A stretch of 64,000 bases of DNA, from contig CAZLSE010000001.1 in assembly GCA_964562055.1 (NCBI GenBank), positions 28,062 through 92,061 on the forward strand. The letters are read 5' to 3'. Both the position numbers and the translations under genes were made by a program. The notes beneath the pieces are model-generated. The model saw only the letters and a program-made list of their open reading frames with translations, had not been told where the DNA came from and ran no database searches. Positions 9,561 to 54,127 of this stretch are shown piece by piece; position 1 is the stretch's first letter; the number at the start of each line of letters is the position of its first letter. The stretch is from an uncultured Gammaproteobacteria bacterium (GTDB lineage: Bacteria > Patescibacteriota > Microgenomatia > UBA1406 > GWC2-37-13).

Positions 9561-10530
9561 ATGAAACAGTATTTGGTTGGTGGATTACTGATTCTTTTTG
9601 GAGTTGGTATTGGCTAGAGCATTGCACTTCGCACCTATTCTCAAAACTCAAAACATTCTGTACAAATTTCATGTTCAAAGCACAGCCGTCTCACTGATCC
9701 ACTCATCGACTGTGAACTATACAGTCCACACTCACTCATACCTGCAACAACAGTTCGAAAAAAAATTGATCCGATTGTGGCACAATTCGACACACCTAGT
9801 TCCGAAATAGCAATTTACTTCCGTGATCTTAAAAACGGTCCACGGTTTGGTATTAACAAACGTGCACAATTTGCACCAGTTAGCCTCCTTAAGGTACCCA
9901 TACTTATTGCCTATCTTAAAAAAAGCCGAACAAAATCACCTACTCCTTACACAAGAGTTAGAGCTTGACGGAGACGTCGCGGTTGATAATACAAACAGCA
10001 TTGATCCGAGATTCCGCTTGGAAAAAGGAAAAAAATATACAGTTGACGCATTACTTAAAAATATGCTTTCTGTTTCGGACAATGCATCGTTTCAATTATT
10101 GGTTAAACACATTGAGCCAAGTTATATTCAACAAATTCATAAAGAATTAGACATACCCTACCCAGATGAAAACTCGCCTAACGATTATATTTCCGTCCGT
10201 AGTTATGCAGGTTTGTTTCGAGTGTTATACAACGCAACTTACCTCTCTCGAGAGACGTCTGAAAAAGCATTGACATATCTTCTCGATTCAAAATTTACTC
10301 AAGGAATTATCGCCGGAGTACCTAAGAACACACAAACAGCAATGAAATTTGGTATCTATCAAGAACAAAATAATGAAAGCAAAACTCAGCTCCATGAATG
10401 TGGAATTGTGTACGCAAAAGATCTTCCCTATGTTTTGTGCATTATGAGTAAGGGTTTGGGATTAAAAAATTCTATCGACTTACTCAAGCAAGTGTCACAG
10501 GAAGTGCATGATGGTGTAACCGGTAAATAA
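9561..10530 (+). pseudogene. Class A beta-lactamase-like serine hydrolase, disrupted by an in-frame TAG and a +1 frameshift in an A7 run
   Basis: One frame reads MKQYLVGGLLILFGVGIG-TAG(9615-9617)-SIALRTY...[18 protein letters not shown], containing the SxxK motif. After the A7 run at 9918-9924 the next frame continues AEQNHLLL...[13 protein letters not shown] (SDN motif)...AMKFGIY. Confidence 0.6.
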
Positions 10531-10538
10531 TACGTGGT

Positions 10539-11807
10539 TTAACCTAAGGAAAAATCACGACTTTCAAACGGTCCAATCATTGCACCATTCAATGTTTTTG
10601 AAACAAACAATTCTTTTGCAAGGTCTACAACTTCATTTTTTTGCACCTTCATAATGTGCTCAATTACACGTGAAGGATTGGCCACTTCTTTTTCAAGAAC
10701 AAATTTTGTTCCAAACATTGTAGCGATATTCATTGAGTCTTCAAGACTAAGTGCAAACCGACCCTTAACCAATTCTTTTGCGTCGGAAAGCTCTTTTTCA
10801 GTTATGTCTCCAGCTGCAATTTTCATGTGTTCATCGATTATGACATGAATTGCTTCTTGAATTTTATCTTTATCGTTTCGAATACCTGCTTGAGTGACGA
10901 TTGTGCCGGAATCGCTATATAACTCACGCCCGGTAGAGATGTAGTAGCATAATCCTCTTCTTTCACGCACCTGCATAAAAAGTCGAGATGACATGCCTCC
11001 GCCTAAAATTGCGGCTAGAAGTTGAAGTGCAAATTTGCGTTTGTCGCTAAATGAGAATGCGCGATACCCAAGTGAAATATGAACTTGTTCGGTTTTTTTG
11101 TTTTTTGCATAAAATTCAGGTTTGGTTTGTTTGTGAGTAAATAGTATTGGCTTGGGTGTTTCTTTATTAATCCATGTTCCGAATTTTTTCTCGATGTACG
11201 CGACATATTCTTCCTGTTTTCCCTGCAATCCACCTGCAAGAACAACTGTTGCATTGCTTGGGGCATAAAGCGCTTCCATATAGCTTGTAAAGGTTTCGCG
11301 ATTAAACGATGTTACTGTTTCTTTTGTGCCTGCAATATCATAGCCAAGTGGATTTCCCTTATAGACAACCTCTTCAAAAATATCTCCAACCTTACGCGCA
11401 GGCATATCCTCGTACATGTTTATCTCCTCAACTATAACCCCTTTCTCGCGCTCAATCTCTTCGGGATCAAGAAGCGATGCAAGAAGCATATCGGATAATA
11501 CATCGATTAGTTTGGTTGTATGGTCGTTTGTTGCTTTTATCCAGTACCCGGTATGATCCTTTGATGTAAACGCATTAAATATTCCACCAATTCCTTCTAT
11601 AGCGGATGATATGGCATATGAGCTTGGAAATTGCTTTGAACCCTTAAATGCCATATGTTCAAAAAAGTGAGCAATTCCGTTATTTTTTTTATTTTCATAC
11701 CTGCTTCCTGCTCCAACCATGACTAGTGCAGTAAGTGTTGGGAATGACTGTGTATCAACTAAAATGACTTGAAGCCCGTTTGAAAGTGTGCGTGATGTTG
11801 TTTGCAT
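10539..11807 (-). CDS. M16 (pitrilysin/insulinase) family zinc peptidase
   Basis: Inverted zinc motif HFFEHMAFKGS (HxxEH). The length and two-domain layout are typical of the M16B family. Confidence 0.9.
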   Translation of the reverse strand: MQTTSRTLSNGLQVILVDTQSFPTLTALVMVGAGSRYENKKNNGIAHFFEHMAFKGSKQFPSSYAISSAIEGIGGIFNAFTSKDHTGYWIKATNDHTTKLIDVLSDMLLASLLDPEEIEREKGVIVEEINMYEDMPARKVGDIFEEVVYKGNPLGYDIAGTKETVTSFNRETFTSYMEALYAPSNATVVLAGGLQGKQEEYVAYIEKKFGTWINKETPKPILFTHKQTKPEFYAKNKKTEQVHISLGYRAFSFSDKRKFALQLLAAILGGGMSSRLFMQVRERRGLCYYISTGRELYSDSGTIVTQAGIRNDKDKIQEAIHVIIDEHMKIAAGDITEKELSDAKELVKGRFALSLEDSMNIATMFGTKFVLEKEVANPSRVIEHIMKVQKNEVVDLAKELFVSKTLNGAMIGPFESRDFSLG

Positions 11808-11827
11808 AGGAAAAAATTATACAAGAT

Positions 11828-12613
11828 TTATCCCACACTTGTATACGAACGGAGAGCAAATTTCCAAAACATACGCGAAAGGATAAAAAGTATCATCGCA
11901 CTCACACAGAGAATAATGATATACCCCGCATTTATTTCACCAAGCAGTACCTTTACGGGCACCGCAACCACCAACATAAGTGGAATAAGCAAATAGAGAA
12001 GTAAATTTCCCGTTCGGAGTATCATTTCCACAGGATAGCGCGCAAATCCGTTAAACGTATACAAAAAATCAGAAAGATTATTTAAGTTCGGATACCAAAT
12101 TAATAACGAAGAAAAGAAAAACCAAAACGAAAAAATGACCACTATCCCGACTAACGCCAAAAGTAAAAACATACACACACCTTCAAGTGTTACCGGAAGC
12201 TGCCGATACTGTATCCACCAAATCATCGATCCAAGCCCGAGTGTGATGCGTACAAGGTTAGTGATCCGAATGCGGAGTGTTGAAACAAAAAATTGTGTAT
12301 CAATGGGTCGGAGAAGATAGGCATCAAGCCCGCCTCTATTCACCACATAGGAAAAATCCTCAAACCCGCGTGAAAAAAACAGATGAAATATGCCAATTAC
12401 AAGCACATATCCCATGGCCAGAAGCACAAGTTCGTCGCGGCTCCATCCATATACATGATGCACACGATCCGTGAGCATAAAAATCCAAGCAAGTTGAAAT
12501 ACACCCCATCCAGTTGAAGCAAGAGCTCCATTAATTGCGCTCACTCGATAGGCAAGCATATGCGCCACATTCATGTGAATAATAGCTTTATACACTCGAA
12601 TATATTTTTCCAT
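11828..12613 (-). CDS. ABC-2 type transporter permease (COG3694/COG4587-like)
   Basis: Polytopic membrane protein directly downstream of a paralogous permease and an ABC ATPase. The ATG at 12613 is 1 nt after the upstream TAA, so it is preferred over the longer track ORF. Confidence 0.65.
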   Translation of the reverse strand: MEKYIRVYKAIIHMNVAHMLAYRVSAINGALASTGWGVFQLAWIFMLTDRVHHVYGWSRDELVLLAMGYVLVIGIFHLFFSRGFEDFSYVVNRGGLDAYLLRPIDTQFFVSTLRIRITNLVRITLGLGSMIWWIQYRQLPVTLEGVCMFLLLALVGIVVIFSFWFFFSSLLIWYPNLNNLSDFLYTFNGFARYPVEMILRTGNLLLYLLIPLMLVVAVPVKVLLGEINAGYIIILCVSAMILFILSRMFWKFALRSYTSVG

Positions 12614-12614
12614 A

Positions 12615-13403
12615 TTATTGACCAACGGCCGTAAACTGACGTAATCCAAAAAACCACATTATTCTATTTACGATTACTATTCCCCCATACCATATAAGTT
12701 GCATGCCTAAAATATGAAACAGCTCCTCTGCATTGTAGATTCCCTGAACACTGGTTACGGGAAAATATCCCACATAAATAAATGGAAGTGAATGGGCGAT
12801 ATTTTTTAAGACTTCAGGGTAAAGCGGAATAGGTAATAGTCCTCCTGAAAAAATGATGGAGACTATCATAAACAACTCAGTGATTCCTCCAATTTCTTTA
12901 ATCCAAAAAGCTAAAAAAGCCAGACTTAACTTAATGGTATAGGAAAGTAAGTATCCCATGATAAAAATACATAGAGTAATCGGTATTGTTTCCGGACGTA
13001 TATTAATTGTAAGATTGCTTTTTGTAACTAACGCTATATACCCAACAATTAGCAGTGCATATGTGGCCTGGAGAACTCGATGAGGCAACTCTTCGAATAG
13101 TTGCATCCAGTAGTATGAAACTGGTTTAAGAAGATAGTTAATGAGCCCTCCTCGTTTAATATGAAGCTCGGAGACTTCGTATTCCACATGTGAACTTAAA
13201 AACAGTCCGCAGATGGTCATAAGAAAATAGTAAGTCGTAAGCGAAGATAACTGAGTTTGTTCTCCTTTTTGAAAAACCGCTCCTGTCCAAAATAAAATGA
13301 GCGTTAAATTGTTCATTATAGGCATAAGCAGCCATATGAATGACTTAAGTTTATACTCTAAAATTTCTTCGAATTGAAGACCAATTATTCGCAGCCATCT
13401 CAT
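12615..13403 (-). CDS. ABC-2 type transporter permease
   Basis: Six or more hydrophobic segments. Its start overlaps the stop of the ATPase gene by 4 nt (ATGA). Confidence 0.65.
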   Translation of the reverse strand: MRWLRIIGLQFEEILEYKLKSFIWLLMPIMNNLTLILFWTGAVFQKGEQTQLSSLTTYYFLMTICGLFLSSHVEYEVSELHIKRGGLINYLLKPVSYYWMQLFEELPHRVLQATYALLIVGYIALVTKSNLTINIRPETIPITLCIFIMGYLLSYTIKLSLAFLAFWIKEIGGITELFMIVSIIFSGGLLPIPLYPEVLKNIAHSLPFIYVGYFPVTSVQGIYNAEELFHILGMQLIWYGGIVIVNRIMWFFGLRQFTAVGQ

Positions 13404-14379
13404 ACCGTTTCGTTTTTAAATATTGTTCCAATGATTTCTTCTATTTGGGGCTCCTCAATAGTCAAATCACTAATCTGGTAATGCGACAGAAGATGATTGG
13501 TAAGGGATGCCGTTTTATCTTTTGGCACCTCAAACACAACTTGTTCATCTGTATACGAAACTATACGTGCAACATGTTCTAATTTTGCACGTTCAATGGG
13601 GTGCTCAAACATTACTGATATTTTTTTAAGTTGCGTATGTTTGCTTACAATATCGCTTAAACTGCCATCATATAAGAGCTTGCCATGGTTAATAATAATT
13701 ACTCGTTTGCATAGTTCTTTTACATCGTTCATGTAATGGCTTGTAAGTAGTATTGTAGAGGTGTGTTTTTTGTTATATTCCTTAATAAACGTCCGCATAC
13801 GTTGTTGTACCACAAGATCAAGTCCAATGGTAGGTTCATCAAGAAATAAAATTTTTGGTTTATGGAGAAGCTGAGCTGCTAGCTCACATTTCATTCGCTG
13901 TCCAAGCGATAACTTACGTACTTGAACGGTAAGAATGTCGTGCAGATCCATAAGATCTGATAAATCTGATACAGTCTTTTTAAAATCATTATCGCTTATG
14001 TCGTATATCTCTTTATAAAGAAGAAATGAATCAAGTGCTGGCAAATCCCACCACAGTTGATTTTTTTGACCCATGACGAGTGCGATTTGTTTGAGAAATG
14101 AATGATCTCTCTGAAAAGGAGTATGGCTTAGCACTTCCACGTTACCGCCTGAAGGGTAAATTAATCCCGAGAGACACTTAAGCGTTGTAGTTTTCCCTGC
14201 ACCGTTTGGACCAATAAAGCCAACCAATTCCCCTGCTCAATTGAAAAAGAGATATCATCAACTGCTTTTGAGAGTTCATACTCACGCTTAAAAAAGGATC
14301 GAACTGATCCAATAAGTCCCGGCGTCTTTTTATATATGCGAAAGTGTTTGGATAAATGTGAGACTTTTATAGTGTGCAT
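13400..14379 (-). pseudogene. ABC transporter ATP-binding protein (COG4586-like) split by a frameshift in a 4-nt G run (C4 at 14230-14233 on the + strand)
   Basis: The upstream frame reads MHTIKVSHLSKHF...ISFSIEQG. The downstream frame reads [22 protein letters not shown] (Walker A), LSLGQRMKCELA and LFLDEPTIGLD. A G5 run instead of G4 would restore [17 protein letters not shown]. Confidence 0.65.
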
Positions 14380-14387
14380 ACGAAGTG

Positions 14388-14460
14388 TGAGCCCACTGGG
14401 ACTCGAACCCAGAACCAACAGCTTAAAAGGCTGCTGCTCTACCAATTGAGCTATGGACCC
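14388..14460 (-). tRNA. tRNA-Lys (anticodon UUU)
   Basis: Hand-folded cloverleaf: GGGTCCA acceptor, GCTC/GAGC D stem, anticodon stem GCAGC/GCTGT with loop CTTTTAA, T arm CTGGG-TTCGAGT-CCCAG. 73 nt, no encoded CCA. Confidence 0.85.
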
Positions 14461-14513
14461 TATTCCCGTTATTGTACCAATTTAGGCTTCGTTATTCAAA
14501 CTCTTGTTACCTT

Positions 14514-16564: not shown

Positions 16565-19500
16565 CTATGATTTTACCACAAAGTTAGCTATCTTCCCTTT
16601 TACATAAATAAGTTTGTATTGCTTACCCTCAAGATATTTTTTCAAGCCAACATCGGATTGTACTGTTTTTTCAACCATATCTTGTGTCGGCTCTCCCTGG
16701 ATGGTTATTGTTCCTCTGAATTTGCCATTTATCTGAATCGGAACAGTTACTGACGTCTGTTTTATATCAACTTTTGTTTGGGTTGGCCATTGTGAACTAT
16801 GAATCGACGATGTTTCTCCATACATTCTCCATATTTTCTCAGTCACAAACGGTGCAAATGGTGCTAATATTTGAAGAAATTTCTTTGCTTCATCCCATGA
16901 AAGACTTTCGACCTTCGACTTTTGACTTTCGACTACAGACTCATATTCATTCAGAAATTCCATCATGGCGGCTATTGCGGTATTAAATTTGGTCTGTGCA
17001 ATATCATCTCCCACTTTTTGAATAGTCTTGTTGAGCTTGGCAACCAGTTCAGAATCGGACTTTTGACTTTCGACCTTGGACTTTTGACTTGTATAGAGAT
17101 TCCACACTCTTTTTATAAATCGGTGTGCACCCTGAAGAGCAGATGTTGACCACGCAATTTCCATATTAAAAGGGGCCATAAACATCTCATAGATTCTAAG
17201 CGTATCCGCTCCATATTGGGCAACCACATCATCGGGATTAATGGTGTTTCCCCACGACTTACTCATTTTTCGGTGATCTTCAGCAAGCACCATGCCGACA
17301 TTCCTAAGTCGTAAAAATGGTTCTGGAAAGGTAAGGAGCCCCAAATCCTGAAGAGCCTTCACCCAAAACCGCGCGTACAATAAATGGAGCACAGCATGTT
17401 CTGCTCCACCCAAATACCAGTCAACCGGTAACCAACCAGCGTCCTTCGAGCTCCTAGAGTTTTGACTAGCAAGCCACTCATTTTTCAAATTTTGATATTT
17501 GATTTTTGATTTTTGATTTTTTACTCCAATTTGCATCACAAATTGGAGAAAGTACCAACAACTTCCCGCCCAGTTAGGCATGGTGTCTGTTTCACGCGAT
17601 GCCTTACCGCCACACAGTGGACACGACACTTCTTTAAATCCGCTTATTGCCGTTAATGGCGACTCACCTGTGTCGGTTGGCTCGTACGATTTTGTATAAG
17701 GAAGTTCAAGGGGTAGTTCCGACTCATCAATCATGGTCCATCCCTTTACTGAGCGTACCTCAATAAACCGCAGTAACTCAAATTGTTCTTTGCTGTCTTT
17801 TGTCCCCGCACTAAAATGAGCTTTCCCTGGAACTACATGTACATTTTCCGCTCCAAATATCTGTTCTGCAAACGGTCTCATTTCTTTGGGAAGATATGGG
17901 TCGTTTTCGCCAAACACAACTGTAATTTTTCGCACATTCTTCTTAATCTTTTCCCAATCGATGGCATGATTGTTATAAAGTGTATCGAGTGCGTCGCCTG
18001 TTTTTTGATCAAACGCATTAACTAAGATGGGTTTATATGCGGAATCCACATAAAGCACCGGAGCAACCAAAACAAGCTGATCTATTTTGTTTTCTTGTGC
18101 AATGTGTAGTGCGGTACCCGCTCCGCTTGAATGACCAATAATTATTGATGACGGCCGTGTATATTGTGAGTAGTTTGAGCGTAAAAATGCCATTCTCTCC
18201 TCAAATTTTGGAAGCTTGGCATCCGGTAGAGTTGGCGACACTGCCTCAACTCCACTTAATTTCAGATGATTTACCAGCCATGGAAACCAATTTCCATTCC
18301 CATTACCCCAAGTGCCGTGAATAATGAGTGCGTTCGTATCTTGTCTGTTCTTTTCGCATACATCACAATGAACCATTGGGATAGGTTCACCCCAGTATCG
18401 TTGTCGTGAAAATATCCAGTCACGAAGATGATAGGTTACCGTACGCTTACCCCATCCTTTATCTTCAAGATAGTCCATTACTTTCTGAGTTGCTTCGTGA
18501 ATGTCTAGTCCATTTAAAAATTCAGAGTTAATCATTGTGCCCTCTTCCTCTTGTACCTGTTCTTTTTTGGTGATAAGGCCAGTATCGCCATCTTTTCCTT
18601 TAACAACGCGCAATACATCAATTCCAAACTCTGTAGCAAATTCAAAGTCACGAAGATCATGACCCGGAACGCCCACAACAGCACCAGTCCCAAATCCAGC
18701 CAATACAAAGTCAGAAATCCAAATAGGCATTTCACGTCCGTTTAAGTTATTGATAGCATAAAATCCGGTAAACACACCTGTTTTTTTTCTCCCCTCTGCA
18801 GATCGCTCCATTTCATTTTTTGCTTTAGCTTTCTCAATATAATCTTTAATCTCTTTTAAGTGTGTACCTTCCGCCTTTAATTCTGAACTCAGTAGTTTAC
18901 CTACGAATGGGTGTTCGGGAGCTATAACAATAAACGTTGCCCCAAAATTAGTATCTGGCCGAGTGGTAAAGCAGATAATTGTCTCTGTTGAATCCTTAAT
19001 TGTATACTCAATATTTATCCCCTCTTTCTTGCCAATCCAGTTCCGTTGCATTTCCAATATCCCTCGTGGCCAGTCAAGCAAGTCAAGATCCTTGAGAAGT
19101 CTATCTGCATACGCAGTTATTCTAAAAATCCATTGAGGAAGTTCTTTTTTAGTTATTTCCGACCCACACCGCTCGTGAGTACCATTTGCAAGCACTTCCT
19201 CCTCGGCAAGACCTGTTTTACACTTCGGACAGAAATTTATAGGCGTATTGCGTTTGTACAACAGTCCCATCTTAAAAAACTGCATAAAAAGCCACTGTGT
19301 CCATTTGTAGTAGCTTGGATCGGTGGTAGAAAACTCTCGACTCCAGTCATACGAATACCCAAGCATGTTCATCTGTCTTTTAAAGTTTGCAATATTACCC
19401 GGTACCATATCCATGGGATTTTTTTTCGCTTTAATTGCGGCATTCTCTGCCGGCAACCCAAATGCGTCCCAACCCATAGGATGTAACACATCTTTTCCCG

Positions 19501-19711
19501 TCATTTTAAAATAGCGGGCCAATACATCTGTGCCTGTATATATACGAACGTGACCAACATGAAGTCCAGCTCCTGAGGGATACGGAAACATTGATAGACA
19601 ATATGATTTATTTTCCTGACTTTCGACTGTCGAATAAACCTTTTCCTTCTCCCATAGCTCCAGCATTTTAGCTTCAAATTCTGTTGGGTTATATTTTTCT
19701 GATTCGTCCAT
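16565..19711 (-). CDS. leuS: Leucyl-tRNA synthetase with an inserted alpha/beta-hydrolase domain and several repeat-derived loops
   Basis: HIGH motif (HVGHVRIY), CP1 editing motifs (TTRPDT, GTGAVVGVPGHDLRDFEFA), KMSKS (RKMSKSWGN). The start is set at MDESEKYNPTEFEAKMLELW, which matches the canonical LeuRS N-terminus. Confidence 0.9.
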   Translation of the reverse strand: MDESEKYNPTEFEAKMLELWEKEKVYSTVESQENKSYCLSMFPYPSGAGLHVGHVRIYTGTDVLARYFKMTGKDVLHPMGWDAFGLPAENAAIKAKKNPMDMVPGNIANFKRQMNMLGYSYDWSREFSTTDPSYYKWTQWLFMQFFKMGLLYKRNTPINFCPKCKTGLAEEEVLANGTHERCGSEITKKELPQWIFRITAYADRLLKDLDLLDWPRGILEMQRNWIGKKEGINIEYTIKDSTETIICFTTRPDTNFGATFIVIAPEHPFVGKLLSSELKAEGTHLKEIKDYIEKAKAKNEMERSAEGRKKTGVFTGFYAINNLNGREMPIWISDFVLAGFGTGAVVGVPGHDLRDFEFATEFGIDVLRVVKGKDGDTGLITKKEQVQEEEGTMINSEFLNGLDIHEATQKVMDYLEDKGWGKRTVTYHLRDWIFSRQRYWGEPIPMVHCDVCEKNRQDTNALIIHGTWGNGNGNWFPWLVNHLKLSGVEAVSPTLPDAKLPKFEERMAFLRSNYSQYTRPSSIIIGHSSGAGTALHIAQENKIDQLVLVAPVLYVDSAYKPILVNAFDQKTGDALDTLYNNHAIDWEKIKKNVRKITVVFGENDPYLPKEMRPFAEQIFGAENVHVVPGKAHFSAGTKDSKEQFELLRFIEVRSVKGWTMIDESELPLELPYTKSYEPTDTGESPLTAISGFKEVSCPLCGGKASRETDTMPNWAGSCWYFLQFVMQIGVKNQKSKIKYQNLKNEWLASQNSRSSKDAGWLPVDWYLGGAEHAVLHLLYARFWVKALQDLGLLTFPEPFLRLRNVGMVLAEDHRKMSKSWGNTINPDDVVAQYGADTLRIYEMFMAPFNMEIAWSTSALQGAHRFIKRVWNLYTSQKSKVESQKSDSELVAKLNKTIQKVGDDIAQTKFNTAIAAMMEFLNEYESVVESQKSKVESLSWDEAKKFLQILAPFAPFVTEKIWRMYGETSSIHSSQWPTQTKVDIKQTSVTVPIQINGKFRGTITIQGEPTQDMVEKTVQSDVGLKKYLEGKQYKLIYVKGKIANFVVKS
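16906..16940. repeat. Heptamer micro-array, TTTCGAC family, 5 units, inside leuS
   Basis: TTTCGAC CTTCGAC TTTTGAC TTTCGAC TACAGAC on the + strand. Encodes VVESQKSKVESLS on the minus strand. Confidence 0.8.
17054..17088. repeat. Heptamer micro-array, TTTCGAC family, 5 units, inside leuS
   Basis: ATCGGAC TTTTGAC TTTCGAC CTTGGAC TTTTGAC. Encodes TSQKSKVESQKSDSE. Confidence 0.8.
17484..17525. repeat. Heptamer micro-array, TTTGATT variant, 6 units, inside leuS
   Basis: TTCAAAT TTTGATA TTTGATT TTTGATT TTTGATT TTTTACT. Encodes KNQKSKIKYQNLKNE. Confidence 0.75.
19614..19634. repeat. Heptamer micro-array, TTTCGAC family, 3 units, inside the leuS 5' region
   Basis: TCCTGAC TTTCGAC TGTCGAA. Encodes STVESQE. 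Confidence 0.6.
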
Positions 19712-19772
19712 ATATATCAATTTTGGTATAAAATTGTAAATTTTTATGTACTTAATAAATGAATATAATTCA

Positions 19773-20792
19773 TTATTCAAATAGCTTTAGTAGATTATAC
19801 ACCTTCTCTTTTACTTTTTCTGTCACCTCAATTGCCACAATCCCTCTGTCCCTCATACCATACATCACTCGTGTCCCGAGCGGAGATATAAGTACAACGG
19901 GTAGAACCAATAAGTCTTCTTCTCCATCAATAATGAGTTGTTTTATGGCTCTTTTATGCTCTAAACTAATTAATTTGAAAAGTGCTTTAATTGAATCTTG
20001 TGAAATTGTTCCTTTTTCATTTAGAGCATATAGACAATCTTTTTGTATAATTTTCTCAAGATATTCTTTGTTTAGGGCTTTTCGGAGAGTTTTTTTATCT
20101 ATTACCGAAAAAGTGGGGGAAAAACCTCTTTTTACAAATTCATGTGTCACTACATCGCCTACAGTTATCCACATTGTGTCCCCCAGAGTTGTGGCTAAAT
20201 TGTGTAACGATGCAGTTTTTGTGAATAAATACTCCTCAATAGTCCGAAAAGAGTGGCCCAGTGGCATTCTTAAAGCTGGTATAAGTGATTTTGGCAGATG
20301 ATGTACTTTTCTGCTAAATAATAGGCTTCTGTATGATGTTCCATGCCTATTTATGTATCCCTGCCTGATGCGTGTTGATGATATTACCACATTATCATTA
20401 CCTTTTTTTAGGTCTATAAAAACCACTGAAAGGGGCTTCATGCCGAGCTCAACGCGTTTTTTATTGATAAGATTTGCCCCTTTTTCTGTATCTTGTGTAA
20501 TAACAATTGCATCGATAGAACGCTCTAAAATGGTTGGACCATAGATATCATTAATCCTTACAATAGTGAATTGTCTATTAAAAACCTGTGCATAGGTGCT
20601 TACATTTTTTCTGCGCGTAACCCACGAATCATGACATTCACGTTTGAGTTTTTGGAGAGCCATTTTTTGTGAAGTTATGCCGATAGTAACTTTTTGCCCG
20701 ACTTTAAAGCACTTTCGTATCAACTGTTTATGACCTTCATGAAACGTATCAAACGTGCCTCCGCATACAACATGGGAAAACATAGAGCACAA
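19773..20792 (-). CDS. Fusion of archaeal-type phosphopantetheine adenylyltransferase (cytidylyltransferase fold) and DUF359-type GTP-dependent dephospho-CoA kinase
   Basis: The N-terminal half has CGGTFDTFHEGHKQL (nucleotidyltransferase HxGH) and ISSTRIR. The C-terminal half has GDVVTHEF...SVIDKKTLRK...IDGEEDLLVLPVVLISPLGTRVMYGMRDRGIV, matching the DUF359/COG1909 pattern as I remember it. Confidence 0.65.
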   Translation of the reverse strand: MCSMFSHVVCGGTFDTFHEGHKQLIRKCFKVGQKVTIGITSQKMALQKLKRECHDSWVTRRKNVSTYAQVFNRQFTIVRINDIYGPTILERSIDAIVITQDTEKGANLINKKRVELGMKPLSVVFIDLKKGNDNVVISSTRIRQGYINRHGTSYRSLLFSRKVHHLPKSLIPALRMPLGHSFRTIEEYLFTKTASLHNLATTLGDTMWITVGDVVTHEFVKRGFSPTFSVIDKKTLRKALNKEYLEKIIQKDCLYALNEKGTISQDSIKALFKLISLEHKRAIKQLIIDGEEDLLVLPVVLISPLGTRVMYGMRDRGIVAIEVTEKVKEKVYNLLKLFE

Positions 20793-20811: not shown

Positions 20812-20837
20812 TTGATATATACTATTGATATATACTA
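20812..20837 (+). repeat. Perfect tandem duplication of a 13-nt promoter-like element, TTGATATATACTA x2
   Basis: Bases 20812-20824 are identical to 20825-20837. Each copy carries TGATATA/TATACT, and the second -10 (20831-20836) lies 6 nt from the ATG at 20843. Confidence 0.8.
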
Positions 20838-20842
20838 AATAT

Positions 20843-21946
20843 ATGCTTATGCTTCGACTGCGTATTGTGATTGCTATGTTGCTTGCGATTGGTATTAGTG
20901 CCTTTGTGATGAATTATGCTCAGGAAGATGCAGAAATTCAGACATTGGGAGATGTCTATCAGGCGCCGCATGTAGACCTTAGTAAAATGGCAAATGATTT
21001 AAAAAGTAACTCAAATTCACTAACCAACTCAATCACCTCGTCTCTCCTCGCAATACAACTCCCACAGATTGTGCCGCCACAACAAGACGAAGTTATTACT
21101 CCTGAACCTGAAGAGCCTGTCGTTTCAGAACCAGATCCTGTTACATTTGATTCCGAAGATCATCCGACAGTTCCAGACTCACCTCCAACCTCAACTCCAG
21201 CGCAATTGCCCACCACTATTCCCTTAGATACTCCTATTCCCGTTTCCACTACCCGTCCTATAAGCCCTCCCGTAACAAATCCTCCTCAACCAACCAATAC
21301 ACCAAAGCCTACCAAAGTGCCTAAGCCAACCGTGGCAACATACCAGACTATAACATCCGATAAACGCCCTGGAAGCAACCTTGCAGAAATTTTTGCTGAG
21401 GTAGAAAAACGGGCATGTGTCCCTGCTGCTTTAATGATGGCCATAAAATCAACCGAAACGGGAGAACGATTTAAAAATGATTCTGCAAAGACGATAGAAA
21501 TTTATAACACATACGGATGATGGAAAACAGGCACTGGAGACCCATGTTATGGTTTTGGATATCATACGCAGATCGGTATTGTACCTCAGGATAGTGTGCA
21601 GGCAGGCACTAAATGCAGTAGTGCGGTTGGCAACCCAACCGATATTAAAATAATGGGTCTTTTACAGGTTTCGGAATGGGAGCAGCAAGTCACGAGAAAA
21701 AGTACCATTGCTCATGTTCCGGGTAATTTTGATAGACGAGTACTTTTTGATAATGCGCTTATTTTTGCGTACGCCACCAAAGGTCGTGTTGCCAAATCAC
21801 CCCAACCCAGTTGTTCTGATTGGCCACAAGAGACAATAAAACTGGCTGCAGAAAAACACCACGGGGTATGTAAATATGACTATGGCACAGGAAATGCGGG
21901 AGACTACTGCAAAAAAATTTGGGATCTCTATCGGTCGTTTAAATAA
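20843..21946 (+). pseudogene. Membrane-anchored, proline-rich, lysozyme/transglycosylase-like protein interrupted by one in-frame TGA
   Basis: The ORFs at 20825-21520 and 21596-21946 are in the same frame, and TGA at 21518-21520 is the only stop between them (...EIYNTYG-TGA-WKTGTGDPCYGFGYHTQ...). It has an N-terminal TM segment, a P/T-rich linker and an AIKSTETGE segment. Confidence 0.5.
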
Positions 21947-33683: not shown

Positions 33684-33697
33684 ATAGATTTAGTGTG

Positions 33698-34813: not shown

Positions 34814-34868
34814 AACTTATATTTAATACTATAGTATTATATCATAAATCCTATAATAATTCAAGTTA

Positions 34869-38405: not shown

Positions 38406-38421
38406 GGGGCAAATTATACCA
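38406..38421 (-). promoter_or_regulatory. Extended -10 box (TGGTATAAT) 7 nt upstream of the ATG
   Basis: The minus strand reads TGGTATAAT-TTGCCCC-ATG. No Shine-Dalgarno sequence is present. Confidence 0.4.
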
Positions 38422-38549
38422 TATACTATGGGTTTTAACAAGATCTTAGAGTATATGACTTATTACCCTATCAAAGTAGTTTAAAAGTTATTTTATTATG
38501 TAAATACACTTTTGCTATAAGATTTAATTCAGAGCTAGTACATTATGCA

Positions 38550-41779: not shown

Positions 41780-41808
41780 TTGCACAAACCTATAGTATTT
41801 GATATACT
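41780..41808 (+). promoter_or_regulatory. Sigma70-type promoter TTGCAC-17-TATACT with extended TG, -10 box 5 nt from the ATG
   Basis: TTGCAC at 41780-41785, TGATATACT at 41800-41808, ATG at 41814. The track ORF start (TTG at 41799) lies inside the -10 region. Confidence 0.5.
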
Positions 41809-41813
41809 GTCAC

Positions 41814-42899
41814 ATGGCCGCACCTGCTGAATTACTTTCACAATCTCTGAATCAACGAATAATTCGCTGGGCAGACTATGCATCACAGTCTGTTACTGAT
41901 GGATCACGTTCTCTCGTACGAAACGAAATTATTAATCACCTCCGACCAAAAGCACGAATATTAAGAAAAACACAAGACCAGCGCAACCCGCATAATACAT
42001 TTAGAGTCCTGTGGGGTGACGATGCATTAACCCCAAACTATATTCGAGGACTCCTTGAGAAAACAGTAACCGATCTAACAGCGGCGTATCCTATTGAAAA
42101 TCTCAGTCCTGCACAGAGAGAGATTCTTGCATTATACGCGCTAACCGTACACCCTACTGAGTCACATCCAGAACAATATAAACCACACATTCAATTTCAT
42201 AAGTTTGTAAACAGACTACACAATTCACATGAATACCAGACGCATGAGGATTGGCTTGAAAGTGCAGCAATGGTGGTACAAGTCTAAGGCGTTTCAATAC
42301 AAGATATTCTTAAAAACGAAGCAAAACGAAAAATTGATCAATATCTTGCCCGGAGTGTTGTTGATGCGATAGGAAAGCGAATTCCACCCAGTTTTGATAT
42401 CGACTTTCCAGTGATTTCGAAAATAGTTATTGATACTATGTATGTGGGCAATAATAGAAAAAGACTATTCCAAAAACATCCCACATTTTATGACTTCGAT
42501 AAACTTATTGCACCACATCTTTTGACAGCTCCAAAGTTTATTCAGGAACACTTTCCCTTTTCCGACCATGATAATGCACGACGTGAAAAAACAACGCGTT
42601 ATTTTTTTGAGAATCAATATCCTAAACTATTTTATGGCATACACAAAATGCCACAGTTACTCGCTGAAACATTTGCGATATATATGACCATTCATCCCAT
42701 GACGGACGGGAATGGAACCGTGATACATTCGTTAATTGACCATGCGCTTCTTGCACATGGATGCAAACCCATACCTGCGTGGAATAAAGCAAAAATTGGA
42801 AAACCACTCACCGAACTGAGAGAATGGATACAGGGTAATGTGCTCCCACTCGAGCGGTGGTTTGAAAGACGGTTATCCATAGCAAATTCTCCGTTTTAA
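41814..42899 (+). pseudogene. Fic/DOC-family protein interrupted by one in-frame TAA
   Basis: The ORFs at 41799-42287 and 42411-42899 share a frame, and TAA at 42285-42287 is the only stop between them. The Fic-like motif HPMTDGNGTVIHSL is a degenerate form of HxFxDGNGRxxR. Confidence 0.55.
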
Positions 42900-42976: not shown

Positions 42977-43780
42977 TTGCAGCTCATACAACTATCTATG
43001 AATACATCAGTGCTCGAATCGATTGGACTTACTCAAAATGAGGCGATGGTTTATTTGACATTCCAAAAAAATGGAAATAAAACCGCAGCCGAAATTGCAC
43101 GCATCCTGCATATAGACAAGTCGTCCTGCTACCGTGCGGTTGAATCATTGGTAAAACATGGACTTCTCATCTCAAATCCGAAAAAAAGAGGAGCAACTCA
43201 TACAGCAGTATCACCGGACGTGCTAAAAGACATCTATCACCAGAAGGTCCGAGATCTTAAACACCAAGAGTCTCAACTTGATGATTTTATCCAAAAGCTT
43301 ATACATCAATCGGAAAAACAAAGATCTACCTATATAACCGTGCAAACAGGGCTCGATGCAATTCGTGAAGGAATGGAAGAAAATTTAATAGCTGCCTTAC
43401 ATTCAACAAAAATGATAAAGGAAATATATCGCCTGTCATTCCCCTATTTTAATGATGACTATCATGTCAAGTGGGTGAACGGTTTTGCAAAACGAAGAAT
43501 AGCAGCTGAAGTATCAATACAACAAGTTGTCGATTTTGCACAAAACGATGTGTTTTCCCCCATAATGAAGTCTGACGTGAAATTATTAAAAGAAATTAGG
43601 CTTATGCCCAAAGAAATGAAGGGGTTATATGGACTCCGAATATCTGGAGACATTTCCCATATTATTAGCTTCGATGAAAAGCAAGATTATATTGATATTA
43701 CAATTAAAGACCGATTTGTTACTCAGTTATTGGAATCACTTTTCAACTTTGTTTGGCTCCATAGTAAAAAATACAAATGA
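42977..43780 (+). CDS. TrmB-family transcriptional regulator
   Basis: N-terminal winged HTH LESIGLTQNEAMVYLTFQKNGNKTAAEIARILHIDKSSCYRAVESLVKHGLL. The true start may be the ATG at 42998. A TTGACT-16-TGATATACT promoter lies at 42941-42968. Confidence 0.7.
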   Translation: MQLIQLSMNTSVLESIGLTQNEAMVYLTFQKNGNKTAAEIARILHIDKSSCYRAVESLVKHGLLISNPKKRGATHTAVSPDVLKDIYHQKVRDLKHQESQLDDFIQKLIHQSEKQRSTYITVQTGLDAIREGMEENLIAALHSTKMIKEIYRLSFPYFNDDYHVKWVNGFAKRRIAAEVSIQQVVDFAQNDVFSPIMKSDVKLLKEIRLMPKEMKGLYGLRISGDISHIISFDEKQDYIDITIKDRFVTQLLESLFNFVWLHSKKYK

Positions 43781-44635
43781 ACTGGATTATTTCAAGTATT
43801 CTAATGTCTTGTTCTTCAATTCTTTACTACCTTCTGATTCGTTACGGTCAAAAACGTGGGGTAGCGGAAAAGGCAGTTGCAGAGCACGCACAACAGGCAG
43901 GAGTTCCCACATACACAACCTTGGCGATAGATGATTCAAAAACTCATTTCCCATTTGACTATATGATCATATCGCGAGAACCGGGCAATAATATGAAAAA
44001 TAGCGGTCCTTACGACGCTACTACAGACAAAGTACTTATAGAAGACACCGGCAGACTACTCGCACTCACCCATTCAGTAAAAACACGCAATTTTGGTTTT
44101 TTTAATAATGATGTAGCTAAAAAAAACAGGCAAACTCGAATGGATACATCCCACGTGGAGTGATCATATGTTTGCCTCGCTTAACGACAACCTCGCCTAC
44201 CTTGAATCTCGGTCGTCAATAACACAAAAAGAACGTAAGAATATCGAACGTATATTTTCAGAGAATACACACATAATTGTGTGTGACAGTCCCCGACTTA
44301 TTCATAATGATCTTGCAGACTGGAACGAGCTTACCGATGGCAAAAAAATTACTGCATTTGTTGATTGGGATGAGACATTTTCAGGTGATCCAGTGTGCGA
44401 CTTTGCAGCATACTCCGTATTTTTTAACGATAAGCGGCTTGAAAACCTTAAACGAGGAGATGAAACTGTAACAAAACTTCCGCCCGATTTTGAAGCAAAA
44501 TTTCATATGTATCGACTCCGCTATATCATCTCAAAGATGACGCTTCGCACGAAACGGTCTGTGTTTGATAACAGTGAGCTTGTTCAGACACTCCTTGCCT
44601 ATTCACATACGCTGTTACAACAAGAGTTTGAGTAG
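43777..44635 (+). pseudogene. Aminoglycoside/choline-kinase-type phosphotransferase (APH family), frameshifted in an A8 run and N-terminally truncated
   Basis: Catalytic loop LIHNDLADWN (HxDxxxxN) and FVDWDETFSGDPVCDFA. The frame switch must occur between 44117 and 44126, which is the A8 run at 44119-44126. The repaired reading is FFNNDVAKKTGKLEWIHPTWSDHMFASL. Confidence 0.6.
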
Positions 44636-44636
44636 T

Positions 44637-45630
44637 ATGAAAAAAACAGCTAATCAAAAAAGGGTGGCCCTCGGAACATTTCCCCTTGCGGGAATGTTTA
44701 ACCCCGTAACAAAAGAGGGGGCAACAGACGTGATTAATACATTTCTTGACCAGGGTGGATATTATATTGATACAGCTCCGATGTATGGATTTGGATATGT
44801 TGAGCACCTTTTAGGAGAAGTATTATGTTCAAAAGCACGTGACAGCTACTATCTCATTACAAAATGTGGCAAACATATTGATGAGGTAAAACAAACATGG
44901 ACACCCCAAGCAACTTATGCCGATGTGATAGCTCAATGTGAAGAGAGTCTAACACAATTAAATACAGATTACATCGATCTTTACCTCATACACGAGGCGG
45001 ACATAATTACACCGTTTGAAGAAACAATCCGGGCGCTTATTGATCTTCGCACACAGGGAAAAATACGAGAGATTGGCATCTCAAACGTTACACTCCAGCA
45101 ACTTAAAGAATACAGAAAATTTGCAGACGTAAGATATATTCAAAACAAGCTTAGTTTTATCAATCGAAGTATTGAACCAGATTTCAATCGGTTATTTATC
45201 AAAAAATGATATCCTGTTTATTCCCTATCATATATTGGAGATTACACAACTTACCGGAACTGTGTTAGAAGAAAAAAATCTTGGGAAAAAAGATTTTCGA
45301 AATACGCACGCCTATTTTCAAGATGATAAACTTAATACAATCCGAATGTGGGTAAAGGAGTACATTAAACCATTAGCGCAAAAACAGAGATATACCATTG
45401 GTCAGCTTATGATAGTCTGGACACTTATGCAAGAGCATATCACCTATGCGCTTGTGGGAACAATAAAGCCTGAGTACGTGCGGATAAATATGAAAGCTAA
45501 CTTAATCCAACTATCAGATGAAATAGTTTTACTACTTAAACGGGCATACAGCAATCTTGAAGATCATGTATTGCGCACGTATAACAAATCTATGAGAGAG
45601 TTCAGAGGATTACACTCATGTTATTTTTAA
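44637..45630 (+). pseudogene. Aldo-keto reductase, split by a +1 frameshift
   Basis: YIDTAPMYGFG, DYIDLYLIHEAD, GKIREIGISN, then QNKLSFINRSIEPD, followed in the next frame by IGYLSKNDILFIPYHILE..QLTG. The break lies within 45172-45209. Confidence 0.6.
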
Positions 45631-48242: not shown

Positions 48243-48255
48243 AATACCTTACAAA

Positions 48256-48843: not shown

Positions 48844-48886
48844 AGCCTAAAAAAATGTATATAGTAACAAACAAAAGTTAAGGGAA

Positions 48887-49093: not shown

Positions 49094-49127
49094 TGTAGCA
49101 TATTTTTTTCATTATAATGAGTAATAT

Positions 49128-49760
49128 ATGACCAAAGAATTACTTCATGCCGTGCTCCTAGTATTAAGCATTGCATTAATGTTTATATTCCCCCAAACAC
49201 CACTTCGAACATATGAACTTGAGATTGCCGCATTGCTTCTTATTGTATTATTTGCAGTTCGTAAATTATCTTTATTTTCTAAAAAAACAAGATTGTTTGA
49301 ATCGGTGGTATTTACCCTCATTATTATGGGTATTGTAAATACCTCTGGTGGAATTGCCTCCCCCTATTTTTTTCTCATTTACTTTCTCCTTTTTGCCCTC
49401 ACACTCCTGCTTGAACCGATCATTTCAATTATTACGACCGTTACATTAATGATATTTTACGTGTTTACTATTTCTGGTACTGCAACGATATCACAGCTTA
49501 TTCCAATATTCTCACTTGCCCTCATGACCCCTTTTGCACTTATCATGGGCAACGAATATGAAGAAACAAAACGATTAAGAAAAACAATGTCGAGACAAAC
49601 AGAGAATACATTTCTTTTCTTATCGCTTCTGATGAAAAACCACATAAAGTCTATTCAGGAGCAACTAGACAACTTTGTTGGCGATCATCAACTCCAGTCC
49701 ATTCAAAAATCAATTCATTCCATGCGAAAACAGATTGATATGTTTGAGAAGCAACAGTAA
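49128..49760 (+). CDS. Polytopic membrane protein with a C-terminal helical tail, unknown function
   Basis: Five hydrophobic segments followed by a charged helical region. I found no catalytic motif. Confidence 0.45.
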   Translation: MTKELLHAVLLVLSIALMFIFPQTPLRTYELEIAALLLIVLFAVRKLSLFSKKTRLFESVVFTLIIMGIVNTSGGIASPYFFLIYFLLFALTLLLEPIISIITTVTLMIFYVFTISGTATISQLIPIFSLALMTPFALIMGNEYEETKRLRKTMSRQTENTFLFLSLLMKNHIKSIQEQLDNFVGDHQLQSIQKSIHSMRKQIDMFEKQQ

Positions 49761-49763
49761 TGA

Positions 49764-49938
49764 GTTTATAAAGTTCATAACGTTTATAAAGTTTGTAAAG
49801 TCTGAATGACGAAAGGCAAAAACTACAAGTTACAAGCTATAATGCAACAAAATATTTACAGCGCACTAAAGCGATACAGTTTAGCGTATGTGTTGTCGTT
49901 TGGGCTATTGGTTTTGAGCTTTCAGCTTTTAGCTATTC
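49764..49938. repeat. Composite micro-array leader A: 9-mer GTTTATAAA x4-5, heptamer GYTACAA x4, spacer, heptamer GCTTTNA x5
   Basis: GTTTATAAA GTTCATAAC GTTTATAAA GTTTGTAAA GTCTGAATG (49764-49808). ACTACAA GTTACAA GCTATAA TGCAACA (49822-49849). GCTATTG GTTTTGA GCTTTCA GCTTTTA GCTATTC (49904-49938). Confidence 0.75.
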
Positions 49939-50686
49939 CCCTGTACGCAGTCAACATGGACTCAAATGAATATCGCATCCAATTTGGAACAATCGGTACT
50001 GGAGGTGGAAAAATGGAAGACAATGTTGATAATACCTATACCCTTACCTCAACTCTCGGGCAGGCAGCTTCAAAAGAATTTCAGTCTAATGGATTTATTG
50101 TAAAGGCGGGTTTTCAATATATCTATTCACGCACACCGTTTACATTTTCACTTTCTACGTTACAGATGGATTTTGGTACGCTCATACCCAATACGCCAGC
50201 CACACTCCCCCTCACCTTATCTGTTTCGTTTGGTGGAACGGGTCAGTATGTGGTAACTGCACGAGCCGATAGCCCTCTTACACGTCGTGCTGGTTTACAA
50301 ACAATACCGTTTACCTCTGTAATGGCGGTGTAGATACCTGCACTATTTCTGCCGCAAAAACATGGACGTCTGCTTCTGCGTATGGATTCGGATATTCCAT
50401 GGCAGGCGAAGATATCCCGGCCGACTTTACGAGTGGCAATCACTTTCGTCCGTTTGCCAATCTTCTCGCAACAGAACCCCCTCAAATTGTTATGTCGGGC
50501 GTCAACGTAACCGACAATATCACGCCTACTCCCAATCCCTCCTATTCACCCGCGCCTCAGTTGACAGGAGTTGAGCGTGACACAGTACATGAATCTATCA
50601 TGACCATGAAAGTAAACGTGTCCGCTATCCAACCCGCAGGAAGTTATACGTCCGTTATACGTTTCCTTGCAACTCCATCGTTTTAA
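49806..50686 (+). pseudogene. Secreted surface protein (paralogue of the C-terminal part of 55014-56540), frameshifted
   Basis: Signal peptide KRYSLAYVLSFGLLVLSFQLLAIPLYA. The second frame is open from 50273 and reads CNGGVDTCTISAAKTWTSASAYGFGYSMAGEDIPADF...PAGSYTSVIRFLATPSF, paralleling CDGASCTESTSGDWASATNNGLGYSL...PAGYYYNKVKYTASAIF. Confidence 0.5.
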
Positions 50687-50687
50687 A

Positions 50688-51767: not shown

Positions 51768-51850
51768 CCTGATCCAATAGGTTAATGTGAGTGAAATGTG
51801 GTTTATAAACCATTGCAGGTTCACAGTAACACTTCATACAGTAACCTTAT

Positions 51851-52543
51851 ATGGATGGTTTTTTATCTTCATGCAAGCCGCTCGTTACACGAATAATTGA
51901 ATCGCGATTTAAATGGGAAATTGTACTTATGTGTATAAGCGGCATCACAATCGTGACAACTCTTTTTATATATTTTCAAGTTCCAAATCCGTCAATAGAA
52001 AAACAGTCGGATTTTACCGTTGGAAATGAATTTCCAACACCAACAACACCTGTAGTACAAAAATTCGTTTATGTTGATGTTTCCGGCGCAGTTAATAATC
52101 CTGACGTGTATAAATTGAGATATGGAGCTCGTCTGTATGATGCAGTTGAAAAGGCGGGCGGACTGTCTACATATGCAGATGAAGCGTTTATTAAACGCAA
52201 TATTAATTTTGCGCGAATACTTTCAGATCAAGAAAAAGTGTATATTCCAACCTTTGATGATGTTCAGTTTAGACATGTTGATGAATATGTGCGTGTATTT
52301 AACGAGACATTTATCCCGCCCACCATAAACCTAAACAACAATCAAGAACAATCTCTCCGCATTAACATTAACTCAAGCCCCGTCGAGGAACTGGACAGCT
52401 TGCCCGGTATTGGTCCGGTATTAGGACAAAAAATTATTGATGGGCGTCCTTATGAATCTATAGACCATTTGCTTCAAAAAAAGATTGTCAGTGAGTCAGT
52501 TTTTGAAAAAATTAAACACGCTATTACTGTTTCGGATGAGTGA
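51851..52543 (+). CDS. comEA: Competence protein ComEA (SLBB plus helix-hairpin-helix DNA-binding)
   Basis: N-terminal TM, VDVSGAVNNPDVYKLRYGARLYDAVEKAGG, and a C-terminal HhH (ININSSPVEELDSLPGIGPVLGQKIIDGRPY). Confidence 0.8.
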   Translation: MDGFLSSCKPLVTRIIESRFKWEIVLMCISGITIVTTLFIYFQVPNPSIEKQSDFTVGNEFPTPTTPVVQKFVYVDVSGAVNNPDVYKLRYGARLYDAVEKAGGLSTYADEAFIKRNINFARILSDQEKVYIPTFDDVQFRHVDEYVRVFNETFIPPTINLNNNQEQSLRININSSPVEELDSLPGIGPVLGQKIIDGRPYESIDHLLQKKIVSESVFEKIKHAITVSDE

Positions 52544-54127
52544 TGCGCTTACTACAATTCAACACATTACTCGCCTGTATATTCCTGAACCATATGCATC
52601 TATTCTAATGGGTGTAACCTATGGTGTTGATATACGCATATCACGAGATATAACTGATCAGATTGTACGAAGTGGTTTGACACATCTAATCGTTTTATCG
52701 GGCGCTAATATTACAGCTCTTTTATTCCTTGTTGAAGGGTTGTATAAGCACATCGGCAAACATGGAGGACTCATTTTATACTTTTTATTTCTCATCTTTT
52801 TTATTTCTATCGTGGGGCTTGAACCACCTCTATTTCGGGCTCTCATAATGTTTATCAGTGTAAGCATATGTACTCTTACCGGACGTCCTAGCTATGCGAT
52901 TTGGAATCTATGGTTATCTGTTTGTGTAATTGCATTACTCAAGCCGACATTTATAAATTCACGTTCGCTTCATCTGTCAGTAGTTGCAACAATGGGATTA
53001 ATTATTGGGAATAGAATTATCCAAAACAAATGTGCAATACAACATTATTTCGTCCGTGATTTTTTAATATCATTATCGGTGTTTATAACCACACTTCCAC
53101 TTACTGCCTGGTACTTTCGCACAATTTCTCTGATAAGTCCACTTGCAACTGTTGTTGCGGGATTACTTATATCTCCCCTGATGATTTGTGGGATTTTATT
53201 GCCGGTTGCACATGGTATATTTCCACCGCTTGCATATCTCATTGCTGTACCAGCGCAGGTACTCTTAATCGCACTGATGTCGATTATTCAGTTCGCATCA
53301 TCAGTTCCCCATTCATTTATCCAGTGGTAATACGATTGCTCTATATATTCCTCATTGGTGTATCAACCCTAGCGATTATGCACCGTTTGAATTCGCAGAA
53401 TGTGATTTTTTGCGACGTTGGTCAAGGAAGTGCGACGCTTGTTCAAGTTGGCTATACCCAATTACTCATCGACACAGGTCCTAATAGATCGGTGCTTGCA
53501 TGTTTAGGAAGACATATGCCACTTTTTGATACAACAATTGAATATATCGTAATAAGCCATCCTCAAAAAGACCATGATGGTGCATTATCTGCAATAGCAG
53601 ATATGTATTTAATTTCACACTTAATCTCACATAAAAAATATAAACACCCTTCAATACAAAAACAAATACATGACAGTGTACGTAGTTTTCGTATACCTCC
53701 AATTCACGTCGCCGTGAGTCGGGCAGCTTTCAAAACACAATCGGTAAACGAGTCGGCCTTAGTGGTAACGCTACGAAGCACATATGATGTAATTTTTCTC
53801 AGTTCAGATATATCAGGTACGCAGCTTAAAAGCTTAATTCCACGAGATGTTACTATTTTTACCGTTCCTCACCATGGTTCAAAAACTGGCATGTATGAAA
53901 ACTCACTCCAAAATATTTCACCTCAACTTGCGATAATTAGTGTTGGAAAGTCAAATAGATACGGTCATCCCCATCAGAATATACTTGATTATTTGTGTGA
54001 GTACAAAATTCCAGTTTGGAGAACAGATCTCCAAGGTGAATTAACGATTGATTTACGAAAGAAGAATTCCTCGTATCTCTTTAAAAATATTGATTGCTTC
54101 AAACCCAATCCAACTTTCTCCCACTAA
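52536..54127 (+). pseudogene. comEC: ComEC/Rec2 DNA internalisation channel (competence domain plus metallo-beta-lactamase domain), split by a frameshift
   Basis: The first frame carries the polytopic competence domain (GLTHLIVLSGANI). The second frame carries FCDVGQGSATLV, LLIDTGP, ISHPQKDHDGAL, VPHHGSKTG and YGHPH. The overlap/break window is 53186-53330. The ATG at 52536 overlaps the comEA stop. Confidence 0.65.

Follow-up and report, generated by a model that had tools for sequence, protein, structure and literature searches.

Clustered stop codons and frameshifts suggest recent decay of accessory genes in a Roizmanbacterium lineage

Early-stage genome erosion is known from recently host-restricted bacteria, such as Mycobacterium leprae, Sodalis and Serratia symbiotica. 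A different source of interrupted reading frames is represented by the phase-variable simple-sequence-repeat loci of Neisseria, Haemophilus and Campylobacter, also called contingency loci. The subject of this work is a 64,000-nucleotide stretch of bacterial DNA (G000:C1:28062-92061, hereafter the window), in which eight genes are broken by in-frame stop codons or frameshifts, together with the genome to which it belongs (G000), whose accessory genes appear to be decaying. With host-restricted erosion this genome shares the abundance of pseudogenes among non-core genes, several lesions per gene, neighbouring genes that die together, and the loss of a recombination-repair gene, here recR. It differs in the far smaller scale of the damage and in that the genome is already small (~1.2 Mb). 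An expansion of insertion sequences or other repeats, as in host-restricted erosion, was not seen, with no repeat of at least 200 bp at 85% identity or more in G000. With contingency loci it shares frameshifts at mononucleotide runs in accessory or surface genes, but most of the lesions lie outside repeats, many are substitutions, several occur in the same gene, and the runs involved are not longer than others.

Within the candidate phyla radiation (CPR), pseudogenes have been surveyed in Parcubacteria with the program Pseudofinder, which gave fractions of ~5% and 10% in two genomes, read as genome streamlining, a continuing loss of dispensable functions (PMC11188291). In the present case, ~9% of the genes shared with the closest species are broken. 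The published counts were obtained by database comparison across habitats, whereas the lesions reported here were polarised against three sisters. In addition, the genome considered here is a Roizmanbacterium (Microgenomates), and its load is that of one lineage, 10-40 times the load of two sisters. The result is a new and well-polarised example of a known process and not a new kind of process, as pseudogene fractions of 5-10% have already been published for the CPR.

The window is part of a bin that comprises 138 contigs and in which scaffold gaps are filled with N. It has a G+C content of ~40% and carries two tRNA genes, and its TypA protein has its named homologues in Candidatus Roizmanbacteria, a lineage of the CPR (Patescibacteria). 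Genome sizes of relatives within the genus are 1.0-1.3 Mb. Three references were used. The closest species compared, G012, shows ~78% nucleotide identity to G000 and was taken almost whole. The second sister, G008, is complete-looking, with three gap-free contigs, and provided a third reference at ~70% nucleotide identity. The last consists of two Logan contigs from run SRR27901410 (L151 and L152), which are ~88-97% identical to the window and are referred to below as the ~90% sister. An exact-protein search with the intact window proteins for other assemblies of the same strain, with the window's own genome excluded, found none.

All lesions were read from the assembly consensus and polarised against the sister genomes. 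The window was analysed by a map of its open reading frames (ORFs), Pfam scans, and tblastn and nucleotide alignments to G012, G008, L151 and L152. At the level of the genome, the ORFs of G000, G012 and G008 were each aligned by tblastn to the other two genomes, and in-frame stops and changes of frame were scored, with the G012 query genes limited to those of at least 200 aa. Shadow ORFs were left out of the scoring, as were N gaps, contig ends and, in each query, the N-terminal 80 aa or 20%. Earlier, higher counts of disruptions were dropped. They included apparent frameshifts at N-filled gaps, even in genes that are 94-96% identical, shadow ORFs on the opposite strand, and "stops" that lay just beyond the true stop codons or in spurious extensions of ORFs at the N terminus.

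When the G012 genes were aligned to G000, 46 of 510 (9.0%) were found broken, by 63 stops and 43 frameshifts, 106 lesions altogether. The G008 genes gave 8 broken out of 411 (1.9%). In the four comparison directions that did not target G000, the broken fraction was 0-0.7%; therefore, the false-positive rate is low and the excess is specific to G000. ORFs cover 84.6% of this genome, compared with 90-94% of the sisters, and their median length is 232 aa instead of 278-289 aa.

The distribution of the lesions depends strongly on the conservation of the gene. Among the genes also present in G008, 6 of 348 (1.7%) are broken, compared with 40 of 162 (24.7%) among those absent from it (Fisher p = 5e-16). 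The initial annotation of the window had proposed a comparison of pseudogene density between gene classes and had named an equal disruption of core genes as the outcome that would speak against decay. The comparison instead places the lesions in the poorly conserved genes. Per kilobase, the conserved genes carry 0.017 lesions and the rest 0.592, a 35-fold difference. The same bias is present in genes with a single lesion, of which 5 are conserved and 20 are not, where 71% conserved would be expected (p = 2e-7).

The most serious rival to gene decay is that the broken frames are consensus errors (homopolymer miscalls, low coverage or mixed strains) of a fragmented bin. The 138 contigs, the N-filled gaps and the co-binned phage contigs described below speak for such noise, as do the frameshifts of the window itself, four of six of which are single-base changes in a run, either relative to the ~90% sister or within a C7. 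Errors should scale with sequence length, yet 7 lesions fall in 408 kb of conserved genes and 99 in 167 kb of accessory genes. Stop codons created by substitution outnumber the frameshifts, and only 8 of the 43 frameshifts lie at runs of at least 7 bases. Such runs were hit once in 724 cases in conserved genes and in 7 of 275 cases in accessory genes (p = 7e-4), which agrees with the initial argument that random miscalling would not spare the long runs of intact genes. The lesions are also clustered. The 106 lesions are confined to 46 genes, where placement at random by length predicts 94 +/- 3; many broken genes carry 3-14 lesions each, and 11 adjacent pairs of broken genes were counted against 3.6 expected. 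Finally, intact conserved genes alternate with broken accessory genes along the same contig. The pattern is non-random, and therefore random miscalling, of homopolymers or by substitution, cannot produce it. The initial preference for gene decay over assembly noise is borne out by the density bias, the excess of stops, the clustering and the spared conserved runs, and noise is left as an unlikely explanation of the lesions as a whole.

For 40 broken genes, the functions under loss were classified from the Pfam matches of the intact G012 orthologues. They are peripheral and include hydrolases and peptidases (HAD hydrolases, trypsin-like peptidases, a GDSL lipase, a patatin-like phospholipase and an M15 peptidase), transporters (MFS, EamA, Nramp and CNNM), and enzymes acting on small molecules (a methyltransferase, a short-chain dehydrogenase, an inositol monophosphatase, an acyltransferase and an aminotransferase), as well as the aldo-keto reductase and APH genes. 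The envelope and transfer functions are represented by a PMT-type glycosyltransferase, a 1549-aa laminin-G protein and a type IV coupling protein. None of these 40 classified genes belongs to core translation, transcription or replication. The coupling protein (TrwB/VirD4-like, 723 aa; G000:C5:11798-13962) is 96% identical to its G012 counterpart and is the sole highly conserved gene hit. Its A7 run in G012 is A6 in G000, which makes it the best candidate for either a very recent lesion or a consensus error. The recR gene (G000:C65:5952-6570) carries a short deletion in the region of the Cys4 zinc finger, followed by a change of frame, while G012 and G008 have it intact. This lesion is at residue 59 and thus outside the region scored by the strict filter.

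In the window, the initial annotation had listed ten disruptions. Nine are confirmed against intact orthologues, and the tenth, comEC, is not a lesion, as discussed below. The nine lesions, three nonsense changes and six frameshifts, affect eight genes (Table 1), and runs of at least 7 bases account for only three or four of the lesions. Six of the eight genes are covered by the ~90% sister, where they are full length, except for the ABC ATPase gene, which is open to the contig end; the other two fall outside L151 and L152. The covered lesions are absent from the ~90% sister and are therefore younger than that split.

The beta-lactamase-like gene carries two lesions, as first described. One is an in-frame TAG (9615-9617), the other a +1 frameshift in an A7 run (9918-9924); the A8 run of the gene at 9758-9765 stays in frame. 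In tblastn, the alignment of the intact 322-aa homologue P0002 is divided between frames +3 and +1 and meets a stop at codon 19, and the sister contig L151 has A6 in place of A7 and an intact gene of 322 aa. In the ABC transporter ATPase gene, one base is lost from a G run (G4 at 14230-14233, coding strand) just upstream of the Walker A motif. The 345-aa G012 orthologue matches in two frames, and in L151 the run is G5 and the frame is open. Downstream, both ABC-2 permease genes (11828-13403) are undamaged. The longest ORF of the N-terminal piece extends into the tRNA-Lys gene (window positions 14161-14445 and 14387-14460), and translation most likely begins at the ATG at 14379 (MHTIKVSHL...).

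The genes first named "lysozyme-like" and "Fic-like" are each interrupted by an in-frame stop codon. The 368-aa G012 orthologue of the first matches over its full length in one frame, with a TGA in place of tryptophan at residue 227. The 364-aa G012 orthologue of the second meets a TAA in place of glutamate at residue 161, and the L152 gene of 360 aa is intact with GAA. The names themselves did not hold. Pfam returned no family for the pieces of the "lysozyme-like" gene or its intact orthologue, nor, at E <= 0.01, for either "Fic-like" piece or the intact G012 orthologue, and only the motif HPMTDGNG resembles that of Fic. The syntenic G008 orthologue of the GGDEF-like gene is one ORF of 616 aa, which tblastn places on the window in two frames joining at the C7 run; its own Pfam GGDEF match is weak and under the curated cut-off.

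The remaining frameshifts lie in the right half of the window. The APH remnant has one extra A (+1) in an A8 run at 44119-44126, where the sister has A7. The HAD-APH fusion is intact in G012 (559 aa) and L152 (580 aa), and the window aligns to G012 residues 298-556 only. The missing part corresponds to a deletion of ~1.7 kb with a junction at ~43780-43864, by which an EamA gene and the HAD half at the 5' end of the fusion were lost. The initial annotation had not listed this further lesion. The neighbouring aldo-keto reductase gene has one extra base near 45189 according to nucleotide alignments, outside a homopolymer, and its 330-aa orthologues in G012 and L152 are intact. The surface protein is intact in G012 (286 aa), G008 (307 aa) and L152 (289 aa), and matches G000 in two frames.

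Table 1. Coordinates of broken genes, intact controls and 7-base arrays in the window
Feature	Position	Strand	Detail
Giant surface-type ORF (2384 aa), intact	2251-9405	-	in-frame A8 run 7744-7751
Beta-lactamase-like pseudogene (class A-type serine hydrolase, Pfam Beta-lactamase2)	9561-10530	+	Pfam matches in two frames
ABC transporter ATPase, pseudogene or very recent lesion	13400-14379	-	Pfam ABC_tran from profile position 14
leuS (leucyl-tRNA synthetase), intact	16565-19780	-	in-frame T8 runs 18781-18788, 19419-19426
7-base arrays in leuS	16903-16934, 17058-17090, 17490-17521		
Gene first called "lysozyme-like", no recognised family	20825-21946	+	TGA 21518-21520, Trp in G012
7-base array in class I aminoacyl-tRNA synthetase (tyrS/trpS-like)	22381-22417		
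Two-domain GGDEF-like gene	27016-29008	-	frameshift in C7 run 27988-27994 (G7 on +)
7-base arrays in transketolase	29453-29485, 29929-29959, 29984-30014, 30617-30640, 30862-30892		
7-base array in P-type ATPase	39868-39891		
Gene with Fic-like motif (HPMTDGNG)	41799-42899	+	in-frame TAA 42285-42287, sister codon GAA
HAD-APH fusion kinase remnant	43777-44635	+	Pfam APH matches in two frames
Aldo-keto reductase pseudogene	44637-45630	+	Pfam Aldo_ket_red split at profile positions 171/176
Surface/secreted protein gene, no recognised family	49806-50686	+	one base lost at 50315-50316, outside homopolymer
Competence-domain membrane protein (52540-53330) and metallo-beta-lactamase-domain protein (~53378-54127)	52540-54127	+	separate genes

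The second explanation to be weighed, which the initial annotation had offered beside decay, is that the frameshifts are reversible switches in hypermutable simple repeats, that is, phase variation. A surface protein is among the broken genes, and the C7 run of the GGDEF-like gene is the best, though weak, candidate for such a switch, since G/C runs of 7 bases are rare (16-17 of each per assembly). A switch of this kind does not account for the three of nine window lesions that are nonsense substitutions, or for the three of nine that are indels outside runs. Moreover, the beta-lactamase-like and APH genes each carry a second, irreversible lesion, 63 of the 106 lesions in the genome are stops, many genes have multiple lesions, and hundreds of in-frame runs elsewhere are at least as long as those involved (A6-A8, G4-G5). 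The contingency-locus alternative is thus set aside as very improbable. Slippage of the RNA polymerase or the ribosome at poly(A) runs, described for endosymbiont genes, could restore some full-length product, and the two window frameshifts in A7 and A8 runs as well as the deficit of runs of at least 9 bases in the genus, which would fit selection against slippage-prone tracts, are in its favour; it is nevertheless the least probable explanation of all, as both A-run genes are otherwise inactivated (by the TAG stop and by the 5' deletion) and most lesions lie outside runs.

Ordinary mutational decay remains the preferred explanation. The lineage is recently losing accessory genes in this way, after its split from the ~90% sister, a reading to which we assign a probability of about 0.8. 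The lesions, their derived state relative to the three sisters, their bias towards poorly conserved genes and their clustering are direct observations. The process may be pictured in several steps. First, genes of peripheral metabolism, transport, the cell surface and defence-type functions would come under relaxed selection. Second, stop-codon point mutations would become fixed, together with larger deletions and with indels of one base, of which a minority fall in short runs. Third, a dead gene would gather further lesions, and its neighbours in the same unit would die too. Throughout, purifying selection would keep the conserved genes intact, whatever their homopolymers. In this process the lesions are presumably fixed in the population rather than errors of the consensus, relaxed selection or a bottleneck is the probable cause, and the loss of the repair gene recR may contribute.

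Several points weigh against this conclusion. Some individual frameshifts in short runs could be consensus errors or polymorphisms within the population. Such sites are the G5 to G4 change in the ABC ATPase gene, A6 to A7 in the beta-lactamase-like gene, A7 to A8 in the APH gene, the C7 of the GGDEF-like gene, and A7 to A6 in the coupling protein. The term "accessory" is operational and denotes genes that are missing from, or of low identity in, one third genome. Some of the ORFs found intact in the window are specific to the lineage and cannot be called essential with confidence. The ratio of non-synonymous to synonymous substitution rates (dN/dS), 0.097 against 0.076 (p = 0.056), shows a weak trend at most, with a synonymous divergence (dS) between G000 and G012 of ~2, which is saturated. 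The ratio also climbs with the lesion count, from 0.068 to 0.138, at the same saturated dS (~2). Because of this saturation, dN/dS was dropped as a test of relaxed selection.

A stronger form of the decay hypothesis, in which a fresh and fast genome erosion since the ~90% split has left a quarter of the non-core genes dead and recR inactivated, is possible but doubtful.

The comEC gene requires separate consideration, since it had been counted among the disrupted genes. The Pfam domains Competence (PF03772) and Lactamase_B lie on separate frames in both G000 and G012, beside ComEA. G012 has the same two overlapping frames, and G008 has two adjacent ORFs. Forty genera of the family were searched; in all 28 that gave a match, the metallo-beta-lactamase part forms an open frame of 211-342 aa, and a frame of the fused length, with both the Competence and metallo-beta-lactamase parts, was never found among those 28. 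The G008 alignment of the second part starts at 53378, past the stop at 53330, and the apparent overlap of frames in G000 arises because the earliest possible start codon was taken. The junction of comEA and comEC is an ordinary overlap of start and stop codons. As the two halves are separate frames in these 28 of 40 genera, comEC is not a lesion. Judged by its sequence, the pair appears to correspond to the two parts of canonical ComEC, with the difference that the canonical protein is a single polypeptide and here there are two genes.

The long ORFs of the window that served as controls are intact, as can be seen from the ORF list. The orthologues of the 2384-aa giant ORF measure 2396 aa in G008 and 2384 aa in L151, and leuS is 88% identical to its G012 orthologue over the full length. 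The 8-nt runs that had been reported as in frame all exist, although the third of them, a T8, lies at 19419-19426 and not at 19429-19436. The description of these ORFs as "essential" was loose. Pfam assigns no family to the window ORFs of 1190, 887 and 1300 aa, and the L151 counterpart of the 2384-aa ORF has only faint or weak matches to Kelch and fibronectin-type-III domains. The leuS protein contains an insert (~residues 490-650) that resembles an alpha/beta-hydrolase, and is 1071 aa long, compared with 1055 aa in G012 and 809 aa in G008. Three large intact ORFs (887, 371 and 1190 aa), without a Pfam family, occupy 31020-38441. They have no nucleotide match in the ~90% sister, where L152 carries other large genes in this place (1-4860). 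This is a fast-turnover locus, yet it is intact.

The composition of the bin was also considered. Between 58 and 66 contigs, amounting to 448-580 kb of the 1.77-Mb bin, show less than 5-15% protein homology to either sister. They include C3, C8, C11, C12, C15, C20, C28, C37, C38 and about 50 more, have a G+C content of 37.8% against 38.7%, and encode T4-like phage proteins, namely the RIIA lysis inhibitor, a baseplate wedge subunit and phrog_1735. These contigs are probably one or more large co-binned phages. The stated genome size is therefore inflated and misleading, as about a quarter to a third of the bin looks like phage DNA and the bacterial part comes to ~1.2 Mb. The lesion statistics are not affected because only genes with orthologues in the sisters were used. 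A genome expansion or a second strain in the bin was rejected as an explanation, given that internal repeats of at least 200 bp are absent, the homology coverage per contig is bimodal, and the T4-like phage genes sit on the contigs that lack homology. With a bacterial part about as large as that of the sisters, the expression "reductive genome" used in the initial annotation is only loosely apt.

Two features of the repeats deserve mention. First, A/T homopolymers become gradually rarer with length as far as 8 bases, and at 9 bases their number falls abruptly, by ~8-13-fold (in G000, from 673 to 79). The drop is common to G000, G012 and G008; a sequencing artefact was rejected, since three independent assemblies show the drop, including one without gaps in three contigs. 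Run length would seem to be limited throughout the lineage. Second, tandem arrays of 7-base units (~4.4 copies, ~31 bases; e.g., GACTTTC, ACGTTAC, AATTACA) occur in frame inside conserved genes (Table 1) and encode unusual peptide inserts (e.g., SQKSKVESQKS). In G000 (48 arrays) and G012 (86 arrays), no class of tandem repeats is commoner than period 7, which is rare in G008 (8 arrays). About half of these arrays lie inside ORFs in G000 and about a quarter in G012.

For annotation, the broken frames described here are to be treated as pseudogenes and not as errors to be repaired, and the comEC pair is not to be called broken. A simple test of decay against noise that can be applied without reads combines the density of lesions in each conservation class, the proportion of stops to frameshifts, and the degree of clustering. 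Genome reduction in the CPR is usually inferred from end states, whereas this lineage, in which the ~90% sister allows lesions to be polarised one by one, offers a case where the tempo and the targets of gene loss could be measured. If the more far-reaching hypothesis of fresh and fast erosion were true, the lineage would represent a natural CPR case of reductive evolution in progress, possibly triggered by a bottleneck or by a change of host or habitat.

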